Sequence record: MF614100.1
Direction: 5' to 3' (one strand)
DNA from: Klebsiella phage vB_KpnS_IME279
DNA: 42,518 nt
Part shown: positions 3,751 to 41,800 of the stretch, one piece after another
Position numbering within the stretch: position 1 is the first letter of the stretch
Layout of the letters: the number at the start of each line of letters is the position of its first letter
Notes under the pieces: generated by a model
Database searches by the model: none
Seen by the model: the letters and a program-made list of their open reading frames with translations, nothing else
What the model was told of the DNA's origin: nothing
Translations under genes and position numbers: made by a program

Positions 3751-3810
3751 ATCACGATATAGTTAAGTTGTCGCCGGGGAATGGCCCCGGCAATAACGGA
3801 GATTAAGACG

Positions 3811-4050: not shown

Positions 4051-4093
4051 CCACACGGCCCCTACGGGGGCCACATCCACCCAGGAGCAAGCC

Positions 4094-10688: not shown

Positions 10689-10827
10689 TGGATTATCCTT
10701 TGTTGGTGGATCGCAATTAACATAATGGAATCGTGATTTTATTTCAAGAGGAAAATGTGATTTACTTGTGTTGTCTCTTTCCTTCGTCGGAAAAAATTAG
10801 CGCCCGCTGGTATCGGTCGCGCCCATT

Positions 10828-11664: not shown

Positions 11665-11732
11665 GTTGTCCTCCGGTTAATTCTGCATTACTATAAATCA
11701 CGCTTTAATGATATTACAAGGAATAAAAAGGC

Positions 11733-14234: not shown

Positions 14235-14295
14235 TTGCGAACATCACGAAAGCATGATATAAAATAAGCCTACCCACCACGAAAGAGACGAGACG

Positions 14296-15342
14296 ATGGA
14301 ACTACAAACAAACGGCCTGATCCCTGAGCTGCCGACAATGGAAGTTTACGGATCGATGTTTATCGACGCCCGCGCGGCGGAGGACCTGAGTAACGAAGCC
14401 TATCACGAGGACGAGATCTATATTACCGGGTCGAGCCTCTGGACCATTTTTAGCCAGTGTCCGGCGGCGTGGCGTTTCCAGAAAGCACAGGAGGACAAGG
14501 CCAAAAAACTTAACTCCGCCCAGAAGCCGCTCACGTTCGGGACCACTTCCCACACGATGTTACTTGAGCCGGACCGCTTCCAGCGCGAGTTTTACCGCCT
14601 GCCTAACCCGGACGACTTCCCGGAGCTGATTACCTCAATGGCGAAGATGCAAGCCTGGTTAAAGGAGCGCGGCCAGAAGGGCTACTCCAACAAAACGGCG
14701 GAGGAGCTGATCGCGATGTGTCGCCAGATCCAGCAACCGGACGAAGTGCTAAACATCTGGCACGAGATCGAGGCAAACGCCATCAAAGAGGCGAACGGTC
14801 GCGAGATCGTCCCTGCGAAGGACTGGGACCGCGTTCACTCTATGCGCGACGTGCTACTGGCTAACCACAATTACCGCCGGATCATTGAGACTGGGATCCC
14901 GGAGCTGTCCATCTTCTGCATTATCGACGGCGTTCCCGTTAAGGTGCGTCTGGACCGCGTGACGGACCTCGGCGAGATCATCGACTACAAAACCACGCAA
15001 AGCGCGGAGCCGGAGCGCTTCGGGCGTCTGGCTCACGATCTGGGCTACTGGTGCAAGATGGCGTTACAGCATGACTGCTTCCAGCTCTGCTACCAGCAAA
15101 ACCCGACCGGGACGAAGTTACTTGTACAGGAGAAAGACGAGCCGTGGCTGGCGCTCATGAATCGCCTTACGCCTGAGCAATTGATGATCGGGCGCGGCCA
15201 GTACAAGACGGCGCTCCAGCTCTTTAAACAGTGCCGCGATCTGGATATCTGGCCCGCCTACGCGAACGGCCAGGAGGAGATCGACCTCCGCACTCCGATT
15301 TATTTACAGCAACGTTACAAAGAATATTTTAAGGAGATCTAA
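14296..15342 (+). CDS. PD-(D/E)xK exonuclease (RecB/Cas4-like fold), probable recombination exonuclease partner of ERF
   Basis: LDRVTD...EIIDYKTTQ motif. Sits immediately upstream of the ERF and SSB genes. Confidence 0.65.
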   Translation: MELQTNGLIPELPTMEVYGSMFIDARAAEDLSNEAYHEDEIYITGSSLWTIFSQCPAAWRFQKAQEDKAKKLNSAQKPLTFGTTSHTMLLEPDRFQREFYRLPNPDDFPELITSMAKMQAWLKERGQKGYSNKTAEELIAMCRQIQQPDEVLNIWHEIEANAIKEANGREIVPAKDWDRVHSMRDVLLANHNYRRIIETGIPELSIFCIIDGVPVKVRLDRVTDLGEIIDYKTTQSAEPERFGRLAHDLGYWCKMALQHDCFQLCYQQNPTGTKLLVQEKDEPWLALMNRLTPEQLMIGRGQYKTALQLFKQCRDLDIWPAYANGQEEIDLRTPIYLQQRYKEYFKEI

Positions 15343-16619: not shown

Positions 16620-16662
16620 CTCACTGGCCCCTCCGGGGGCCTGATCCTCCCAGGGGTCGAAG

Positions 16663-17103: not shown

Positions 17104-17145
17104 CGTAAATCACTAACTAATTAATAATCACGGAGACGTTAACAA

Positions 17146-17373
17146 ATGTTGGAGCCTATGATGGCACAGAAACTTAAGCCCGTTTGCCTCGTGAAAGAAG
17201 TCCGCGAGGCGAAGGGCGTAAAACAGAAAGATTTAGCGGACGCGACGGGCATCCTCCAGCAACGTTTAAGCTGCTATGAGAACGGCCACGAGCTGCCGTC
17301 TGTAACTAACCTCTGCCGCCTGGCTATGGCGCTGGATGTTTCCATTAACGATTTGATCGAGTACGGAGTGTAA
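17146..17373 (+). CDS. XRE-family HTH transcriptional regulator (Cro/CI-type)
   Basis: KQKDLADATGILQQRLSCYENG helix-turn-helix. Confidence 0.75.
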   Translation: MLEPMMAQKLKPVCLVKEVREAKGVKQKDLADATGILQQRLSCYENGHELPSVTNLCRLAMALDVSINDLIEYGV

Positions 17374-17374
17374 C

Positions 17375-17614
17375 GTGGAGAATAAAGCCCAGCCCATGAC
17401 CGGGGCAGATATCAAAGGCTATCGCACATTAAGCGAAGGTGATAAGCAACAAATGAATCACCTTAAGGATGTAAGCCGACACTTTATTAACCTGCTGGAA
17501 ACGGCGAAAGAGTCTGGAGCGGATCTTCGCTGGATCGCTCGTGCGCGTACTGCAATGCAAGACGCTTGCATGTTCGGCTGTCGGGCGGTAGCGAAACCGG
17601 ACGATGATTGTTAA
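17375..17614 (+). CDS. Hypothetical protein, 79 aa
   Basis: Coupled to the HTH gene (TAACGTGGAG overlap). Last gene before the terminator. Confidence 0.55.
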   Translation: MENKAQPMTGADIKGYRTLSEGDKQQMNHLKDVSRHFINLLETAKESGADLRWIARARTAMQDACMFGCRAVAKPDDDC

Positions 17615-20028: not shown

Positions 20029-20067
20029 GTATCGCTCCATTGAAAAGGGGGCTTGTCGCCCCCGTTG

Positions 20068-31115: not shown

Positions 31116-31586
31116 TCAGAAAGGGATATCAAGCGGCTTGTCGTTGTTGGCCGGAGGAACGATCTCGGCGTCCTCCACGTCCTCCGCTTTGCGCGGGTTC
31201 ACTTCGCGAGCTGCGTCCGCTGCGGCCACAAAATCGCCCTCCAGCGGCCCCTTGTAGGTCAGTTGTTTAATGCTGGCGATATCTGCGAGGAGCTTCGACT
31301 CTGCCACCACGAAGTCGGCGCGGAGTTTCTGGAGTCCGGCTTCCATGATCGGGAGGCTGATCTCTGCCTGCTCCTCGGCGGTCGGCATGGTGTAATCAAT
31401 ATCGATCTCGATCTCTTTTAACAAGACGTAAGCCGCATTTTTGCCGCCTGAATTAATATGCTCCTGGACGCCCCAGATCGCGCCGTAATCGTAACTTTCC
31501 ACGGACACGGATCCGCGCTTGTCGCCGCCCTGGCTACCTTCGGCCACGCAAAGGCAAACGTACATTGTTTTTTTGATAGTTGGCAT
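31116..31586 (-). CDS. Hcp (T6SS tube protein)-like protein with a C-terminal acidic tail ending DIPF
   Basis: MYVCLCVAEGSQGGDKRGSVSVESYDYGAIWGVQEH ... LKEIEIDIDYTMPT matches the Hcp pattern Y..I.G..G.S...IKGS..V....W.G.SQ ... K.ID..TP. The last residues, KPLDIPF, were checked codon by codon. SD AGAGGA. Confidence 0.6.
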   Translation of the reverse strand: MPTIKKTMYVCLCVAEGSQGGDKRGSVSVESYDYGAIWGVQEHINSGGKNAAYVLLKEIEIDIDYTMPTAEEQAEISLPIMEAGLQKLRADFVVAESKLLADIASIKQLTYKGPLEGDFVAAADAAREVNPRKAEDVEDAEIVPPANNDKPLDIPF

Positions 31587-31610
31587 TGTCTCTTATCCTC
31601 TTTGGGGTGG

Positions 31611-31628
31611 GGCGGGACGATGCCCGCC
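31611..31628 (-). other. Intercistronic GC hairpin GGCGGG-N6-CCCGCC followed by CCACCCC before the start codon
   Basis: Member of the recurring hairpin-plus-motif family (see findings). Confidence 0.45.
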
Positions 31629-32054: not shown

Positions 32055-32327
32055 TTAACTCCTGATAATTTCGAATGCTTGCACCTGGTTAGTGCGATAA
32101 CTGCCATGATTGCAGGCGTAACCGTCTTTGCTGTCCGGGCCATCAGTCCAGAGATCCTCATCACAAAGCGGGGTAAAGTGTCCGGCTTCTCGGTGAGCGC
32201 TATCCTTAAAAAATCCCAGGGTATAGCGATAAATCTCCAGGGTGTACTCCTCCACCTCGTAGCCAGTACCCCACCACATAGGGCGGATCCATCTTATCCG
32301 ATCGCCTGGTTTTGGTTCGTTACCCAT
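32055..32327 (-). CDS. Hypothetical protein, about 90 aa, with His/Cys residues
   Basis: ORF 32055-32456. Preferred start is MGNEPKPGD, with SD GAGGAG. Confidence 0.5.
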   Translation of the reverse strand: MGNEPKPGDRIRWIRPMWWGTGYEVEEYTLEIYRYTLGFFKDSAHREAGHFTPLCDEDLWTDGPDSKDGYACNHGSYRTNQVQAFEIIRS

Positions 32328-32348
32328 AAGCTCCTCTCGTCGGTGAAT

Positions 32349-32366
32349 GCCCCGGCGGTCCGGGGC
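32349..32366 (-). other. Intercistronic GC hairpin GCCCCGG-N4-CCGGGGC followed by ATTCACCGACGAGAGG
   Basis: Recurring element (see findings). Confidence 0.5.
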
Positions 32367-32811: not shown

Positions 32812-32849
32812 GGTGTCCTCTCTCAGTTAATCACGATAGCGTGATGTTG

Positions 32850-32881
32850 TGTGAGAAAGAATAGCCCGGACGTACCGGGCT
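32850..32881 (-). terminator. Probable (partial) terminator after the portal gene
   Basis: AGCCCGG-TACGT-CCGGGCT followed by ATTCTTTCTC on the minus strand. Confidence 0.5.
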
Positions 32882-36787: not shown

Positions 36788-37211
36788 CGTCGGCCCCCTT
36801 CTCAGCGAATAACGTCGAGGCGGCCATGAAGCCATGATAGGCCAGATCCTCGGCAAAATATGCCTGGTGCTCGTCGTTGTCCAGGTCTGGCCGGACGCCT
36901 GCATGACGCCAGATATTATTGATCGCGTGGACGTTCTCGTGGACCACGCGGCCCAGTAGCTGGTTAGGGTTCGGCACGTAACGCAGGCCGATAAACTGAT
37001 AACGGAAGCCGTCGATCGTGACGTCGTGGCACAGCGCCCCGGCTCCCTGGGAATATTCTTTGACCTTGTGGAGCTTTACGCCTGCTTTGCGCACTCGCGC
37101 CAGGTCGTCGAGGTCATACCAGACGACGAGCGTCCGGTACATATCGATCAGGTGTTGCGGCAGGCCGGACGCCTCGATCCTCTCGCGGGTGGACTTATTT
37201 TTTTTGCTCAT
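36771..37211 (-). CDS. HExxH-motif protein (putative small zinc metallopeptidase) between TerS and TerL
   Basis: VVHENVHAINNIWRH carries an HExxH plus downstream His/Glu arrangement. Overlaps both TerS and TerL by 17 nt. Confidence 0.55.
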   Translation of the reverse strand: MSKKNKSTRERIEASGLPQHLIDMYRTLVVWYDLDDLARVRKAGVKLHKVKEYSQGAGALCHDVTIDGFRYQFIGLRYVPNPNQLLGRVVHENVHAINNIWRHAGVRPDLDNDEHQAYFAEDLAYHGFMAASTLFAEKGADDGKKS

Positions 37212-38085: not shown

Positions 38086-38501
38086 TAGTCGCAGGCTCCG
38101 CCGCTGGGGGTGCTGCTGTCGCCACTGTCATAGCTGGGGCTGCTGTCGCTGTCGTGGCTGGAGTGGTGGCGGTGGCTGCTGTCGTCCCAGTCGTTGCGGT
38201 CGTTGACGTGGTAGACCGGGTTTAGTGGCGAGGTCAGCGAAAGCGGGTTAAGCGGGTCGAGGTCGTCGCCCTGGCGGTGGAGTGCGCGCCGGGTCGGGTC
38301 ACTGCGGAGCGCGGTCGCCATGCGCTGCTCGTGGTGTCGCTGGTTGTTGCGACGGTCGCGGGAGGCGATGGACATAGCCCGATCGATCTCCGCCCCCATT
38401 TTGGCCGCCTGGCTCTTTGCGGCCATGCTGCGCGGGGCGATGATGATCCGCTCCGTTGGCTTGCGGTTAAACAGGCGCTTAATGCTGTCAAAGATGGACA
38501 T
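38085..38501 (-). CDS. Hypothetical protein with a Ser/Asp/His-rich C-terminal tail
   Basis: Strong SD AAGGAG. Tail SSHRHHSSHDSDSSPSYDSGDSSTPSGG. Confidence 0.6.
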   Translation of the reverse strand: MSIFDSIKRLFNRKPTERIIIAPRSMAAKSQAAKMGAEIDRAMSIASRDRRNNQRHHEQRMATALRSDPTRRALHRQGDDLDPLNPLSLTSPLNPVYHVNDRNDWDDSSHRHHSSHDSDSSPSYDSGDSSTPSGGACD

Positions 38502-38529
38502 TGCTATCTCCTTCGTCTGGGTGGAATCG

Positions 38530-38550
38530 GCCCCAGCATAGCGCCGGGGC
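38530..38550 (-). other. Intercistronic GC hairpin followed by GATTCCACCCAGACGAAGGAGA
   Basis: Recurring element (see findings). Confidence 0.45.
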
Positions 38551-39731: not shown

Positions 39732-39751
39732 GGTGTTCTCCGTCGGGTGAT

Positions 39752-39767
39752 GGCCCCTTGCGGGGCC
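39752..39767 (-). other. Intercistronic GC hairpin GGCCCC-GCAA-GGGGCC followed by ATCACCCGACGGAGAACACC-ATG
   Basis: Recurring element (see findings). Confidence 0.5.
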
Positions 39768-39774
39768 GGGTAGG

Positions 39775-39984
39775 TTAAAAGCCGTCGTAGTAGCCTGGAA
39801 GGGCGCGGAGCTGGGCTTCGTCGTCCACCAGGTCCCACTCGTCCGGGGTCAGGTCGTCAACCTCTGCGCGCTCTGCTGCCTCGTTGGCGATGATGCCCGC
39901 CACCAGCGGGGAAAGGTTGCCGCTTGCTTTCTGGCGCTCGATCTCGGCCTGAATGTCTGCGAGGGTCTGGGCTAATGTGGTCAT
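39775..39984 (-). CDS. Hypothetical acidic protein, about 69 aa
   Basis: ORF 39775-40173. Preferred start is MTTLAQTLADIQ, after the CCAGACGAGAGAGCAGACC motif. The longer version overlaps the promoter. Confidence 0.5.
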   Translation of the reverse strand: MTTLAQTLADIQAEIERQKASGNLSPLVAGIIANEAAERAEVDDLTPDEWDLVDDEAQLRALPGYYDGF

Positions 39985-40175
39985 GGTCTGCTCTCTCGTC
40001 TGGTTAAAGGTGGGCGGCGTTGCTTCGTCGGTAGCCTCGGTTCGATTCCACTGGTAAGCGTTCTGCCTTGCGGCGAGTGTCCAGCGTTCGGCCTCACGGT
40101 TGGGAATCCTGATACTACGATCAAGCCCCTGCGTTGCTCCTCTCCGGCTGCATCCTGCCGCCGCCCTACGCAATA

Positions 40176-40203
40176 AATATAACGAAAGCGTGATATTAAT
40201 GCA
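40176..40203 (-). promoter_or_regulatory. Candidate sigma70 promoter TTGCAT-N16-TTATAT with an approximately 185-nt leader
   Basis: AT-rich island in otherwise GC-rich DNA. The leader contains the 11-mer GGTTCGATTCC (plus strand). Confidence 0.4.
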
Positions 40204-41094: not shown

Positions 41095-41178
41095 GGATCC
41101 TCCCAGTCTACGGGGTCGAATGATTAGCGCCTACTTGCGGCCCTCTGGGCTTCCATCGTTCGGCGCTGGTGGTATCGG

Positions 41179-41493
41179 TCAGGCTACGGGCTGGCCTATG
41201 TGGCCGACTGGACGGCTTGCCTTGAGCTGGTTCCAGTATGTGAACGGCGTCACATCGCGCCATGAATGATTGTACTGGCCGAAGGACAGGGAGCCGGACG
41301 CGACGCTGGGGCCATCGTAGCCGACGCGGTGGAGTTCGGACAGCGGGACTAACATCAGCGTGTCCAGTGTCTGCTCGCTCTCGTCGTAGCGGTACGGCTC
41401 GGCCCGGACCAGAGCGGGGAAGCGGACGCGCTCGAATCCGCTCGGACCGTAATATCCGAAGTGATCGGCGTGGAGGATCTCGATCAGTTTCAT
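41179..41493 (-). CDS. Hypothetical protein, about 104 aa
   Basis: ORF 41179-41685. Preferred start is MKLIEIL, after the hairpin-plus-motif element. Confidence 0.55.
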   Translation of the reverse strand: MKLIEILHADHFGYYGPSGFERVRFPALVRAEPYRYDESEQTLDTLMLVPLSELHRVGYDGPSVASGSLSFGQYNHSWRDVTPFTYWNQLKASRPVGHIGQPVA

Positions 41494-41521
41494 GGTGTTG
41501 TCTCTCGTCGGGTGGATGAAT

Positions 41522-41537
41522 GCCCCGTTGCCGGGGC
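41522..41537 (-). other. Intercistronic GC hairpin GCCCCG-GCAA-CGGGGC followed by ATTCATCCACCCGACGAGAGACAACACC-ATG
   Basis: Recurring element (see findings). Confidence 0.5.
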
Positions 41538-41545
41538 GCTGGTGG

Positions 41546-41800
41546 TCAGGCGCGAAACACGTTGATCGTGTCGTTGCGGTCGAGATAGAACTGGTCCCAC
41601 TGGCGAGCGCTGTCGGTGCGGATAATGTAGCCGTCGATCTCGGTGACGGTGCAAGGCTTATGGTTGCCGGGGCAAAGGATAACATCGCCCACTTTCAGGT
41701 CGCGGCCTTTGATTGTCTGGCGGAGGCTTACCAGCTCGCGGATTGCGTCGCGGTTGTAGCTGGCGTGTAACTCGGTGATACGTGCTTTAAGTGCTGTAGT
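41546..41800 (-). CDS. Hypothetical protein, about 84 aa
   Basis: ORF 41546-41875. Preferred start is MTTALKAR, with SD GAGGAG. Confidence 0.55.
   Translation of the reverse strand, partial: TTALKARITELHASYNRDAIRELVSLRQTIKGRDLKVGDVILCPGNHKPCTVTEIDGYIIRTDSARQWDQFYLDRNDTINVFRA

Follow-up and report, generated by a model that had tools for sequence, protein, structure and literature searches.

Intercistronic G/C hairpins and translation-initiation regions as probable operon punctuation in P22-like lytic podophages

Intercistronic stabiliser hairpins, which shield the upstream mRNA from 3' exonucleases and thereby set relative expression, are known from REP/BIME elements, from malE-malF in E. 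coli and from the puf operon in Rhodobacter. Extra-stable C(UUCG)G tetraloop hairpins reportedly occur in the intercistronic mRNA of phage T4, as Tuerk et al. are said to have described in PNAS in 1988. T4-type phages also carry the promoter-early stem-loop (PeSL), which combines a strong promoter with a functional terminator (PMC2839356, PMC4122927).

Here, we analyze hairpins in sequence record MF614100.1 over its whole length of 42,518 nt (the window). The phage is a Sortsnevirus-type, P22-like podophage with about 98% identity to Escherichia phage sortkaff. A 16-mer scan of genome contigs returned mostly chance matches, and its sole real match, a 42.8-kb contig binned in a Cereibacter MAG, is the same phage. 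An Rfam search of the whole window at the gathering threshold matched no family, a tRNA/tmRNA scan of the window found none, and a literature search on these phage genera gave nothing relevant. For comparison across genomes we catalogued 36 modules in seven genomes from five genera of P22-like lytic podophages; the module statistics pool orthologous sites across these related genomes, so that P values overstate independence. Collectively, our results show that each module is made of two separable and independent RNA-level parts, a G/C hairpin and a translation-initiation region (TIR). Hairpin and RBS are a compact and largely ordinary punctuation of multi-gene phage mRNA, and no new regulatory motif.

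Hairpins between co-directional genes

The initial annotation placed G/C hairpins without a U tract on the minus strand before the genes starting at 41493, 39731, 38501, 32327 and 31586, and we find all five hairpins as placed, with an A/C-rich and purine-rich stretch after every one. The predicted stability of these hairpins is -14 to -17 kcal/mol, and the RBS region 3' of them is predicted to be open. The non-coding hairpin at 41522-41537 (GCCCCG-GCAA-CGGGGC, GNRA loop, -14.1 kcal/mol) lies 8 nt past the TGA at 41548-41546. It is followed at 41494-41521 by the TIR of gene 41493-41179, which is predicted to be unpaired and consists of the G-free C/A tract AUUCAUCCACCC, the Shine-Dalgarno-like (SD-like) GACGAGAGA and a CAACACC spacer. 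At 39752-39767, GGCCCC-GCAA-GGGGCC lies 7 nt past the TAA of a 69-aa gene and precedes the TIR AUCACCCGACGGAGAACACC (39732-39751) of gene 39731-38793; Sortsne and IME_EC2 have GCCCCG-GCAA-CGGGGC as its ortholog, and Kc237 has AGCCCCG-ACAC-CGGGGCU with a U tract. The hairpin at 32349-32366 (GCCCCGG-ACCG-CCGGGGC, -16.9 kcal/mol), 7 nt past the TAA of gene 32811-32374, has the orthologs GGCCCC-UGUG-GGGGCC in Sortsne and GGCCC-CACG-GGGCC in Kc237, and the TIR of gene 32327-32055 follows at 32328-32348. GGCGGG-CAUCGU-CCCGCC at 31611-31628 is again 7 nt past a TAA, that of gene 32052-31636, with the TIR CCACCCCAAAGAGGAUAAGAGACA (31587-31610) of gene 31586-31116 behind it.

The fifth of these copies, at 38530-38550 on the same strand, is an 8-bp hairpin with one G.U pair, GCCCCGGC-GCUAU-GCUGGGGC, followed by the TIR CGAUUCCACCCAGACGAAGGAGAUAGCA (38502-38529) of gene 38501-38085. 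It shares sequence with a sigma70-like promoter, TTGAAT (38563-38558)-17-TATGCT (38540-38535), at the spacer and the -10; this promoter was read by eye and not flagged by the promoter scan, and relatives have TTGCAT-17-TATGTT or TATGCT in this place. Given this overlap, the 38550-38530 copy may have a different or additional role. Two of the distances from stop to hairpin proposed for these junctions need correction: at 38501 it is 21 nt, outside the proposed 6-20 nt, and the stop belongs to a doubtful 37-aa ORF, and at 31586 the proposed 52 nt are actually 7 nt.

The annotation's count of at least five copies is exceeded by further ones, some on the plus strand. At 4051-4093 (plus strand), taa and CCACAC lead into GGCCCC-UACG-GGGGCC, which is followed by ACAUCCACCCAGGAGCAAGCC and atg; at this junction the loop is UACG, UUCG or UGCG depending on the phage, with UUCG in Sortsne, Lumpael and IME_EC2 and UGCG in Kc237. 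The plus-strand copy at 16620-16662 (-22.3 kcal/mol) places GGCCCC-UCCG-GGGGCC after the SSB gene, and the endonuclease gene has its SD paired in another small hairpin that follows, GAUCCUC-CCAG-GGGGUC. A hairpin at this junction is present in 6 of the 7 catalogued genomes and is missing in the Lumpael listing. The minus-strand element at 41095-41178 is an expanded variant with the same start, tga-CCGAUACCACCAGCGCC, after which a composite stem-loop of greater length leads to AAUCAUUCGACCCC...GGGAGGAUCC-atg; relatives have the simple hairpin GCCCGG-UCGAGAG-CCGGGC in this place.

Two more elements are relatives of the module. The minus-strand hairpin at 20029-20067 (GGGGGC-GACAA-GCCCCC, z=-3.0), between the genes of a 1047-aa protein and the tailspike, runs into UUUUCAAUGG with a partial U tract and is probably a weak terminator; its loop is GCAA, AUAA or UUAG among relatives. 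On the plus strand (element 3751-3810), a 5' leader contains GCCGGGG-AAUGG-CCCCGGC at 3773-3791, with a -10-like TATAGT shortly before it and AAUAACGGAGAUUAAGACG-atg after it; in Kc237 the equivalent hairpin is preceded by TTGCGA-17-TAGTAT. Additionally, three modules come after the first ORF past a sigma70-like promoter (ORFs 41803-41546, 39984-39775 and 32811-32374).

Of the 17 hairpins that have 6 or more G:C pairs in a row, 15 fall in the non-coding 7.7% of the window (P=2.5e-15), and this bias holds in six relatives too. Across the catalogue the stems are all-G/C, 5-8 bp long and without a U tract. The hairpin starts 5-8 nt past the stop in 26 of the 36 modules and ends 15-29 nt before the ATG in 35, and the stop is UAA in 33 of 36 compared with 62% for all genes. 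The modules lie between co-directional genes in spacers of 38-70 nt, and we infer that the two flanking genes share one transcript because there is no promoter or terminator between them. Read-through of the stop codon, or fusion to the downstream ORF, was rejected by inspection since spacers of 43-52 nt are out of phase.

The 36 modules from the seven genomes include 24 four-base loops, and 19 of these are UNCG or GNRA when read in the sense direction while none is when read antisense; the chance expectation is 4.7% (P about 2e-21, with orthologs that are not independent). As in stable tetraloops, their closing pair on the transcribed strand is G/C. That these loops are found only on the sense strand indicates that the hairpins act at the RNA level. 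Conservation in relatives, which had been suggested as a check, is borne out by hairpins at the same junctions in seven genomes and five genera. Stem variants run from GCCCCG through GGCCCC and GGCCC to GGUGCCC with both sides changing together, and the covarying pairs were counted by script, a count that is circular as the sequences were chosen as hairpins. By eye, the modules share no sequence beyond their G/C stems, and the stems themselves differ (GCCCCG, GGCCCC, GGCGGG). The hairpins are thus RNA-level elements selected for stability rather than for sequence.

The translation-initiation region and a leader RNA

The initial annotation joined the hairpin to a discrete conserved motif, which did not hold up. 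ATTCAYCCACCC occurs exactly only once, and allowing up to 2 mismatches yields 3 matches where 5.3 are expected. GACGAGAG occurs 6 times against 1.9 expected, with only 3 of the 6 before starts. A discrete sequence motif was rejected since ATTCAYCCACCC and CACCCNNACGRAGA are not or barely above shuffles. The recurrent feature is one of composition, in which a C/A tract poor in G leads into an SD of the GAGAG/GGAG type. GAGAGA is 48-fold enriched upstream of starts, and only free-standing genes show a drop in G, to 9-14% at -22 to -14. The C/A tract with its SD also precedes the hairpin-less starts 14296, 8532, 7410 and 35147, and the TIR is found after promoters without any hairpin. What had been read as one linked element of hairpin and motif therefore falls apart, as the motif is the ordinary TIR of this clade and is present without hairpins. 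Similar sequences have been selected for rapid translation with a cell-free E. coli system, where CCACC, CCCAC and CACCC ranked among the top 5-mers and AC repeats improved SD function, even though C-rich RBS elements performed poorly in vivo in E. coli (PMC3310771).

The gene at 39984 had been described as having the motif without the hairpin. In the hairpin's place, however, the TIR is preceded by the closing stem GGGCGGCG/CGCCGCCC of a 160-nt structured leader RNA at 40005-40168 (minus strand). This leader covaries and is common to four unrelated groups of lytic enterobacterial phages. A terminator-like site lies downstream of it, at about 37767-37722. Its structure was hand-drawn and taken through a covariance model and realignment, while RNAalifold on a MAFFT alignment missed the variable helices. 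An Rfam search of the leader at E<=10 returned no family, and a literature search with its sequence strings gave nothing relevant. HK022 carries put antiterminator RNAs, and comparison of the leader with HK022 gave no match. The leader is the more interesting by-product of this analysis and would represent a new phage RNA class if it proved to regulate transcription or translation in cis.

Function of the hairpins and alternative readings

As a whole, the hairpins and TIRs are best explained as the standard compact punctuation of polycistronic mRNA in this phage clade, with a stabilising and insulating function suggested by their anatomy; we lean towards this explanation with limited confidence. 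Host RNA polymerase would be expected to read through the hairpin as there is no U tract. A position 5-8 nt past the stop is about the closest place at which a ribosome on the stop codon need not melt the hairpin. The most likely job of the hairpin would be to stop 3'-to-5' exonucleases and so shield the 3' end of the upstream cistron after downstream cleavage or Rho-type termination, and such protection would set the relative stability of mRNA segments. Its second likely job would be to insulate the next RBS, by sequestering G/C-rich sequence that might otherwise pair with it. The G-depleted C/A tract may keep the initiation region unpaired and might itself favour 30S binding, ahead of the purine-rich GAGAG/GGAG SD, the A/C spacer and the ATG. 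Among the mechanisms offered by the initial annotation, a transcript-stabilising hairpin agrees best with this anatomy.

There is also some chance that the repeated hairpin and TIR flanks serve, or persist, as short homologies for the exchange of ORF cassettes, a tentative idea that can coexist with an RNA function. Even though the window and sortkaff are 97-99% identical, they differ by whole ORFs whose ends lie in modules (three events, a small sample with no control set). Window positions 32056-32333, with a 90-aa ORF, are missing from sortkaff, and the break falls within GACGAGAG of the TIR at 32334. Positions 39750-39977, which hold a 69-aa ORF with its hairpin and TIR, are also missing, and about 25 nt of TIR-like sequence match both flanks. 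The third event replaces the ORF at 41554-41796 and leaves its TIR/ATG and stop/hairpin flanks in place. As every small ORF has the same flanks, the modules coincide with points of gene gain, loss and swap between close relatives, and the PeSL cassettes of T4-type phages provide a precedent (PMC2839356). However, breakpoints are common at phage gene borders with or without a hairpin, other breaks between the window and sortkaff lie at overlapping stop/start junctions, and the homologies are only about 10-25 nt long. The bias of tetraloops towards the sense strand and the constant distances to stop and start also argue for selection at the RNA level, which recombination alone does not explain.

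A related and in our view unlikely proposal is that the unit is a portable, position-locked border of expression cassettes that moves together with accessory ORFs and brings about their shuffling, its hairpin set at the front edge of the terminating ribosome and immediately outside the initiation complex that comes next. If true, this would leave no naked RNA between cistrons, and this group of high-G+C P22-like lytic podophages would have in the unit a counterpart of its own to the T4 PeSLs, without promoter or terminator.

It is decidedly unlikely that the hairpins are leaky terminators, attenuators or pause sites, which would stop or slow some polymerases and thereby create a gradient of expression along the operon. 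They do have the G/C-rich form of intrinsic terminators (5-8 bp, -14 to -17 kcal/mol), and the U-tract terminators of the clade share this hairpin type, its stems and its UUCG and UCCG loops. U-tract and U-less versions are swapped at two orthologous sites (Kc237 39064 vs window 39774, and window 20067 vs Lumpael 25202), so some copies may attenuate transcription, and the 20067 copy has UUUUC past its stem. However, E. coli RNA polymerase requires a U tract for intrinsic termination, while past the stems of the 36 modules T accounts for 15% of the first 12 nt. In most copies T occurs 0-3 times within the 9 nt that follow the stem, where the first bases are A/C-rich. The initial annotation was right that these are not canonical terminators, since at most 3 T follow in those 9 nt, a limit that is part of our definition of the module class, and an RBS and ATG come 15-29 nt downstream. 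A terminator scan of the window picked up none of the five hairpins listed there. Nor do the hairpins mark the end of a transcription unit, as SD and ATG follow with no intervening promoter except possibly at 38563-38535, and essential downstream genes (such as the 312-aa gene and the endonuclease gene) are without a promoter of their own. The U-tract hairpins of these genomes, by comparison, sit at operon ends, before promoters.

It is very improbable that RNase E or RNase III separates the cistrons by cleavage at the hairpin or next to it. Two window copies have GC|AUUC directly past the stem, which fits the RN|WUU preference of RNase E, and the first base after the hairpin is most often A (23 of 36 modules). 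This RNase E signature is nevertheless limited to these 2 of the 36 modules, and the RNase E site that had been suggested is therefore not supported as a conserved feature; the C/A-rich, U-poor flanks would in any case make poor RNase E substrates. The suggestion of an RNase III site fails on stem length, as RNase III substrates need about two helical turns, with an interrupted duplex of around 20 bp in T7-type sites, and stems of 5-8 bp are far too short.

We give hardly any credence to an operator at which a phage-encoded RNA-binding translational regulator would read the hairpin and/or the CCACCC...GAGAG tract: the architecture is repeated before many early genes of unknown function and GAGAGA is strongly enriched at starts, but speaking against the regulator that had been proposed are orthologous loops that vary (UACG/UUCG/UGCG), stems that swap GCCCCG for GGCCCC, a tract that keeps its composition and not its sequence, an exact motif that does not recur, tracts found on both strands and before early as well as replication and structural genes, and the ten neighbouring proteins, which in PHROGs were without known function in 9 cases and an endonuclease in 1, with no recognisable RNA-binding regulator.

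The value of the hairpin and TIR finding itself is modest. It documents a very regular operon punctuation in five genera of P22-like lytic podophages, which can be used for annotating such phages, for start calling, for telling true terminators from read-through hairpins and for the design of compact synthetic operons. Additionally, the modules flag sites of gene-cassette exchange.

Comparison with known systems

The nut sites of lambda and P22 resemble the modules in having a small hairpin with a GNRA-like loop on a nascent phage transcript. However, the modules are many per genome (5-9), have variable loops and follow stops rather than early promoters, and no boxA-like sequence (CGCTCTTA-type) was seen in their 4-12 nt C/A spacers. 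Like PeSLs, they are short repeated regulatory sequences that flank small accessory ORFs and at which the indels and replacements of relatives break, whereas most of them are without a promoter or terminator. Of the roughly 9 copies in the window, just 2 overlap promoter-like hexamers, and a U tract is absent from all of them; a promoter-like site and a palindrome are combined only at 38563-38530 and 32886-32858. The TIRs share with the leaders of Barendt et al. 2012 (PMC3310771) the CCACC/CCCAC/CACCC tracts and AC-rich spacers just 5' of the start, beside the SD. Those leaders were selected in vitro, while the phage tract stands together with an SD, and its role may simply be to leave the region unpaired.

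REP/BIME and the other stabilisers are, like the phage hairpins, stop-proximal G/C-rich stem-loops without a U tract that lie within operons. REP elements differ in their consensus of about 35 nt, their imperfect palindrome and their location in the host chromosome, while the phage hairpins share only their G/C-richness. From the T4 CUUCGG hairpins the modules differ in that the genome here has 59% G+C while T4 is A+T-rich, and in that the modules are locked 5-8 nt past the stop and 15-29 nt before the ATG. As in T4, these are short G/C stems with UNCG loops (here also GNRA) that lie between cistrons and are selected for stability.

Stable hairpins at gene junctions

The initial annotation described a G/C hairpin and a conserved motif directly before the ATG at five minus-strand gene starts (41493, 39731, 38501, 32327 and 31586). 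At all five junctions a G/C hairpin is indeed present, and between it and the ATG lies a stretch rich in A/C and purines. The five hairpins have predicted folding energies of -14 to -17 kcal/mol, and the segment from hairpin to ATG is predicted to be open. Hairpins with at least six consecutive G:C pairs are strongly concentrated between genes, with 15 of 17 found in the non-coding 7.7% of the window (P=2.5e-15), and strong G/C hairpins are concentrated in non-coding DNA in six relatives too. Two of the reported stop distances needed correction. At 31586 the hairpin begins 7 nt after the stop rather than after a gap of 52 nt, and at 38501 the hairpin (38550-38530, minus strand) is separated by 21 nt, not 6-20 nt, from a doubtful 37-aa ORF upstream. 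A promoter-like TTGAAT-17-TATGCT overlaps with the latter hairpin; relatives have TTGCAT-17-TATGTT or TATGCT there.

Further copies emerged when all junctions between co-directional genes were catalogued: GGCCCC-UACG-GGGGCC at 4051-4093(+), GGCCCC-UCCG-GGGGCC 3' of the SSB gene at 16620-16662(+), an expanded version at 41178-41095(-), a hairpin with a partial U tract at 20067-20029(-) and one within a 5' leader at 3773-3791(+). The post-SSB hairpin is followed directly by another small one, GAUCCUC-CCAG-GGGGUC (16642-16660, plus strand), in which the Shine-Dalgarno (SD) sequence of the endonuclease gene is paired to an anti-SD-like CCUCCC. Sortsne, IME_EC2, Kc237 and Skarpretter share the CCUCCC...GGGG/GGAG arrangement, and this predicted hairpin probably represses translation through SD sequestration.

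The window and six further genomes (Sortsne, Lumpael, IME_EC2, Kc237, Skarpretter and C130_2), together representing five genera, were catalogued for hairpins with at least 5 G:C pairs and at most 3 T in the next 9 nt, located no more than 25 nt from the stop and 30 nt from the ATG, which gave 36 class members. The hairpin follows the stop by 5-8 nt in 26 of these 36 modules and ends 15-29 nt upstream of the ATG in 35. Among the four-base loops, 19 of 24 are UNCG (UUCG six times, UGCG three times, UCCG twice and UACG) or GNRA (GCAA six times and GAAA) on the transcribed strand, against none on the opposite strand and a chance expectation of 4.7%; non-independence among orthologs inflates the associated significance (P about 2e-21). 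The same bias is seen in the U-tract terminators of these genomes (10/14).

The sequences themselves vary at orthologous sites. The junction at window 4051 has the loops UACG, UUCG, UUCG, UUCG and UGCG in five phages, the stem at the 41545 junction is GCCCCG/CGGGGC in the window and Lumpael and GGCCCC/GGGGCC in Sortsne, and the 32373 junction appears as GCCCCGG-ACCG, GGCCCC-UGUG and GGCCC-CACG. Both G:C and C:G occur at each of stem positions 1-6 and pairing collapses at position 7, in a loop-anchored count that is circular as the hairpins were preselected. The hairpins are a conserved RNA-level feature, and the tetraloop bias reflects selection on RNA thermodynamic stability and not on a recognition sequence. 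An operator for a sequence-specific RNA-binding protein, as once proposed, does not fit elements in which every part varies, and no RNA-binding regulator is recognisable among the proteins encoded near the modules.

The stop before the hairpin is UAA in 33 of 36 modules compared to 62% of all genes, with C as the base directly after the stop in 24 of 36 compared to 27%, counts that include non-independent orthologous sites.

Ribosome-binding regions and a proposed hairpin function

A discrete conserved motif downstream of the hairpin was not recovered. ATTCAYCCACCC has one exact occurrence, and with two mismatches it occurs 3 times versus 5.3 expected from shuffles, while GACGAGAG occurs 6 times versus 1.9 expected, with three of the six before starts. 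What recurs upstream of starts is a composition. In the 35 nt upstream of start codons in four genomes, GAGAGA is enriched 48-fold and AGAGAG 31-fold. Genes with a real spacer show G reduced to 9-14% at -22 to -14, with C and A increased, and a purine-rich SD at -13 to -8 after this G-poor stretch; starts overlapping an upstream ORF are without the tract. It is also found upstream of hairpin-less starts such as those at 14296 (CCUACCCACCACGAAAGAGACGAGACG), 8532 (CACACCAACCAGCGAGGAAAACGAA), 7410 (CCACACCACGAGGACAAAAUU) and 35147 (CACCCACGGAGAACACA). When ribosome display with E. coli components was used to select for fast translation, CCACC, CCCAC and CACCC were among the top 5-mers and AC repeats enhanced SD function, but C-rich sites on their own performed poorly in vivo (PMC3310771). 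Given this selection and the hairpin-less starts, the C/A tract is best interpreted as belonging to the translation-initiation region (TIR), where it would at the least keep the SD unpaired within a G+C-rich mRNA. The observation first noted is real, but its reading as a single motif was an over-interpretation, as the tract composition recurs also without the hairpin.

A terminating ribosome needs only about 4 nt beyond the A-site codon to be single-stranded, as known from ribosome helicase and toeprint work; therefore, a stem 5-8 nt past the stop would be approximately the closest structure that the ribosome need not melt. The stem ends immediately upstream of the SD, close to the expected 5' edge of an initiating 30S subunit, and thus the spacer would be either base-paired or ribosome-covered. 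The short stretches left single-stranded in it are rich in C/A and poor in U. A read-through hairpin might then serve the upstream cistron as a barrier against 3' exonucleases, a role established for REP and other intercistronic stem-loops, and might additionally shield the following ribosome-binding site from G/C-rich sequence upstream. In the window, three copies come after the first ORF downstream of a promoter and another after the SSB gene, which is consistent with favouring of the upstream, highly expressed cistron. We lean towards this combined function of exonuclease barrier and ribosome-binding site insulator.

Promoters and a structured leader RNA

The window represents all or nearly all of the genome of a Sortsnevirus-type podophage, whose structural module is P22-like. 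Its G+C content is 57-65%, and its minus-strand genes extend from 42518 down to 17665. Identity is 97-99% over most of the length to the Escherichia phage sortkaff (MN850581) and 70-82% to Sortsne, Lumpael, IME_EC2, ST231 and Kc237. The annotations of the relatives include no phage RNA polymerase, and therefore the host RNA polymerase presumably transcribes the phage. A promoter scan found sigma70-like promoters dispersed along the window, including TGGACA-17-TATCTT (41880-41852) and TTTACA-17-TATTCT (32886-32858).

Two sigma70-like promoters contain G/C palindromes in the spacer or -10 region (32863-32881 and 38530-38550, minus strand). The former reads TTTACA-[GCCCGG uacgu CCGGGC]-TATTCT and the latter TTGAAT-...-TATGCT, and both are conserved in relatives. 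Such palindromes may act as RNA hairpins or terminators for upstream transcripts while the DNA acts as a promoter. Another palindrome, ATCACG-N4-CGTGAT, recurs at or beside promoter regions (32830-32845, perfect; 14243-14258, 40179-40194, 11697-11712, 10722-10737, 271-286 and 17127-17142). With up to 3 mismatches it has 49 matches versus 18.5 expected, a count reached by no shuffle. It looks like a putative phage repressor operator, possibly for the small HTH protein encoded at 17146-17373. In more distant relatives (Skarpretter, C130_2 and IME_EC2) the palindrome at promoters is a different one, TAGCAC-N5-TGCTA. A 283-nt non-coding region (250-535) adjoins the primase/helicase-like gene (533-2191) and carries numerous GGTAAC/GTTACC repeats, oriented both ways, together with a near-perfect palindrome of 14 nt (AATATATACCCCCT/AGGGGGTATATGTT); it resembles putative replication-origin iterons or another protein-binding array.

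The start at 39984 had been described as having the motif without a hairpin, but a structured leader RNA of about 160 nt lies upstream (40005-40168, minus strand). Its sigma70-like promoter is TTGCAT-17-TATATT (~40205-40177), with the element beginning about 7 nt past the -10 box and ending about 20 nt before the ATG. Matches with 83-96% identity are found in unannotated DNA of 172 phage records, in the otherwise unrelated groups Sortsnevirus/Murrayvirus, Jilinvirus (Arya, PT1), Warwickvirus (swan01) and Dhillonvirus (HK578). Every case examined has a good sigma70 promoter upstream and the leader sense to the downstream gene, and these genes are unrelated between groups. The leader had no match among 5,426 complete E. 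coli genomes. It occurs once per genome and was not found in Sortsne, IME_EC2, ST231, Kc237, Skarpretter or C130_2; in Sortsne just a small hairpin, GGCGGG-AAAUGGU-CCCGCC, comes after this promoter. A 42,764-bp contig in a Cereibacter sphaeroides-labelled MAG (QFQS01000013.1) is essentially this coliphage, with nearly identical leader and flanks, and is probably a binning contaminant.

The leader structure, drawn by hand, has five helices, four with two-sided changes. P1, which joins the 5' and 3' ends, occurs as GGGCGGCG/CGCCGCCC, GACGGGC/GCCCGUC and GUCGxCAG/CUGxCGAC, P4 as CUUGA/UCAGG or CUUAA/UUAAG, and P6 as GCC-GCAA-GGC, CCG-GAAA-CGG or CCC-GAAA-GGG. P5 has at least eight variants, including CAUUGG/CCAAUG, CCAGGU/ACCUGG, CCUGGU/ACCAGG, CCCGGU/ACCGGG, CAUAAC/GUUAUG and CUAUC/GAUAG. 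In a model-guided alignment of 39 matches (35 distinct rows; one, Sortsne at 11 bits, spurious), which favours the structure fitted, 80% of cells are paired versus 28-46% with partner columns slid, 14 of 24 pairs have double changes, and the covariation score is 0.188 versus 0.04-0.07 in slid controls and was reached by 0 of 500 shuffles. The blocks GGAGAGGRGCRACGCAGGGG, AUUCCCAACCGUGA, CACU, AGAACGC and GAGGCYACCGACGAAG between the helices are invariant. The leader matched no Rfam family even at E<=10, nor anything in HK022, the phage that carries put antiterminator RNAs, and no description of it was found in the literature. It is plausibly a cis-acting leader, with 5'-end stabiliser, put-like processive antiterminator and ligand- or protein-binding element as plausible candidate roles. 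It may represent a new phage RNA family and is the item most deserving separate attention.

Alternative roles and comparison with known cassettes

The modules might also be borders of exchanged gene cassettes, a second reading compatible with barrier and insulator function that we hold only tentatively. Differences from sortkaff are mainly whole-ORF insertions, deletions and replacements with ends at gene borders (32056-32333, 39750-39977, 41554-41796, 36788-37192 and 17374-17606), and three end within modules. The 90-aa ORF at 32056-32333 is absent from sortkaff, with the homology break inside GACGAGAG of the TIR. The 69-aa ORF and the hairpin and TIR belonging to it (39750-39977) are likewise missing from sortkaff, and some 25 nt resembling a TIR match the sequence on both sides. 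A replacement between the two phages affects the ORF at 41554-41796, with TIR/ATG and stop/hairpin retained. However, breaks at gene borders are common in phages anyway.

It is improbable that the hairpins are leaky attenuators, a role retained because U-tract and U-less versions interchange at two orthologous junctions. As the initial annotation held, they are not canonical terminators: they lack a U tract, with T making up 15% of the first 12 nt, and have a ribosome-binding site downstream, and hairpins bearing U tracts are located elsewhere, at operon ends before promoters. Processing sites were also suggested, but stems of merely 5-8 bp argue against RNase III, and RN|WUU adjoins the stem in just 2 of 36 modules, both from the window, with no conserved site for RNase E. 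Antitermination nut sites (no boxA, numerous sites, variable loops) and recoding signals (spacers out of phase with the downstream ORF) were rejected.

Collectively, the modules are a clade-wide, ordinary pairing of stable read-through hairpins with a characteristic ribosome-binding region. The whole-ORF exchange at their borders resembles the PeSL cassettes of T4-type phages (PMC2839356), but unlike PeSL most modules here carry neither promoter nor terminator.
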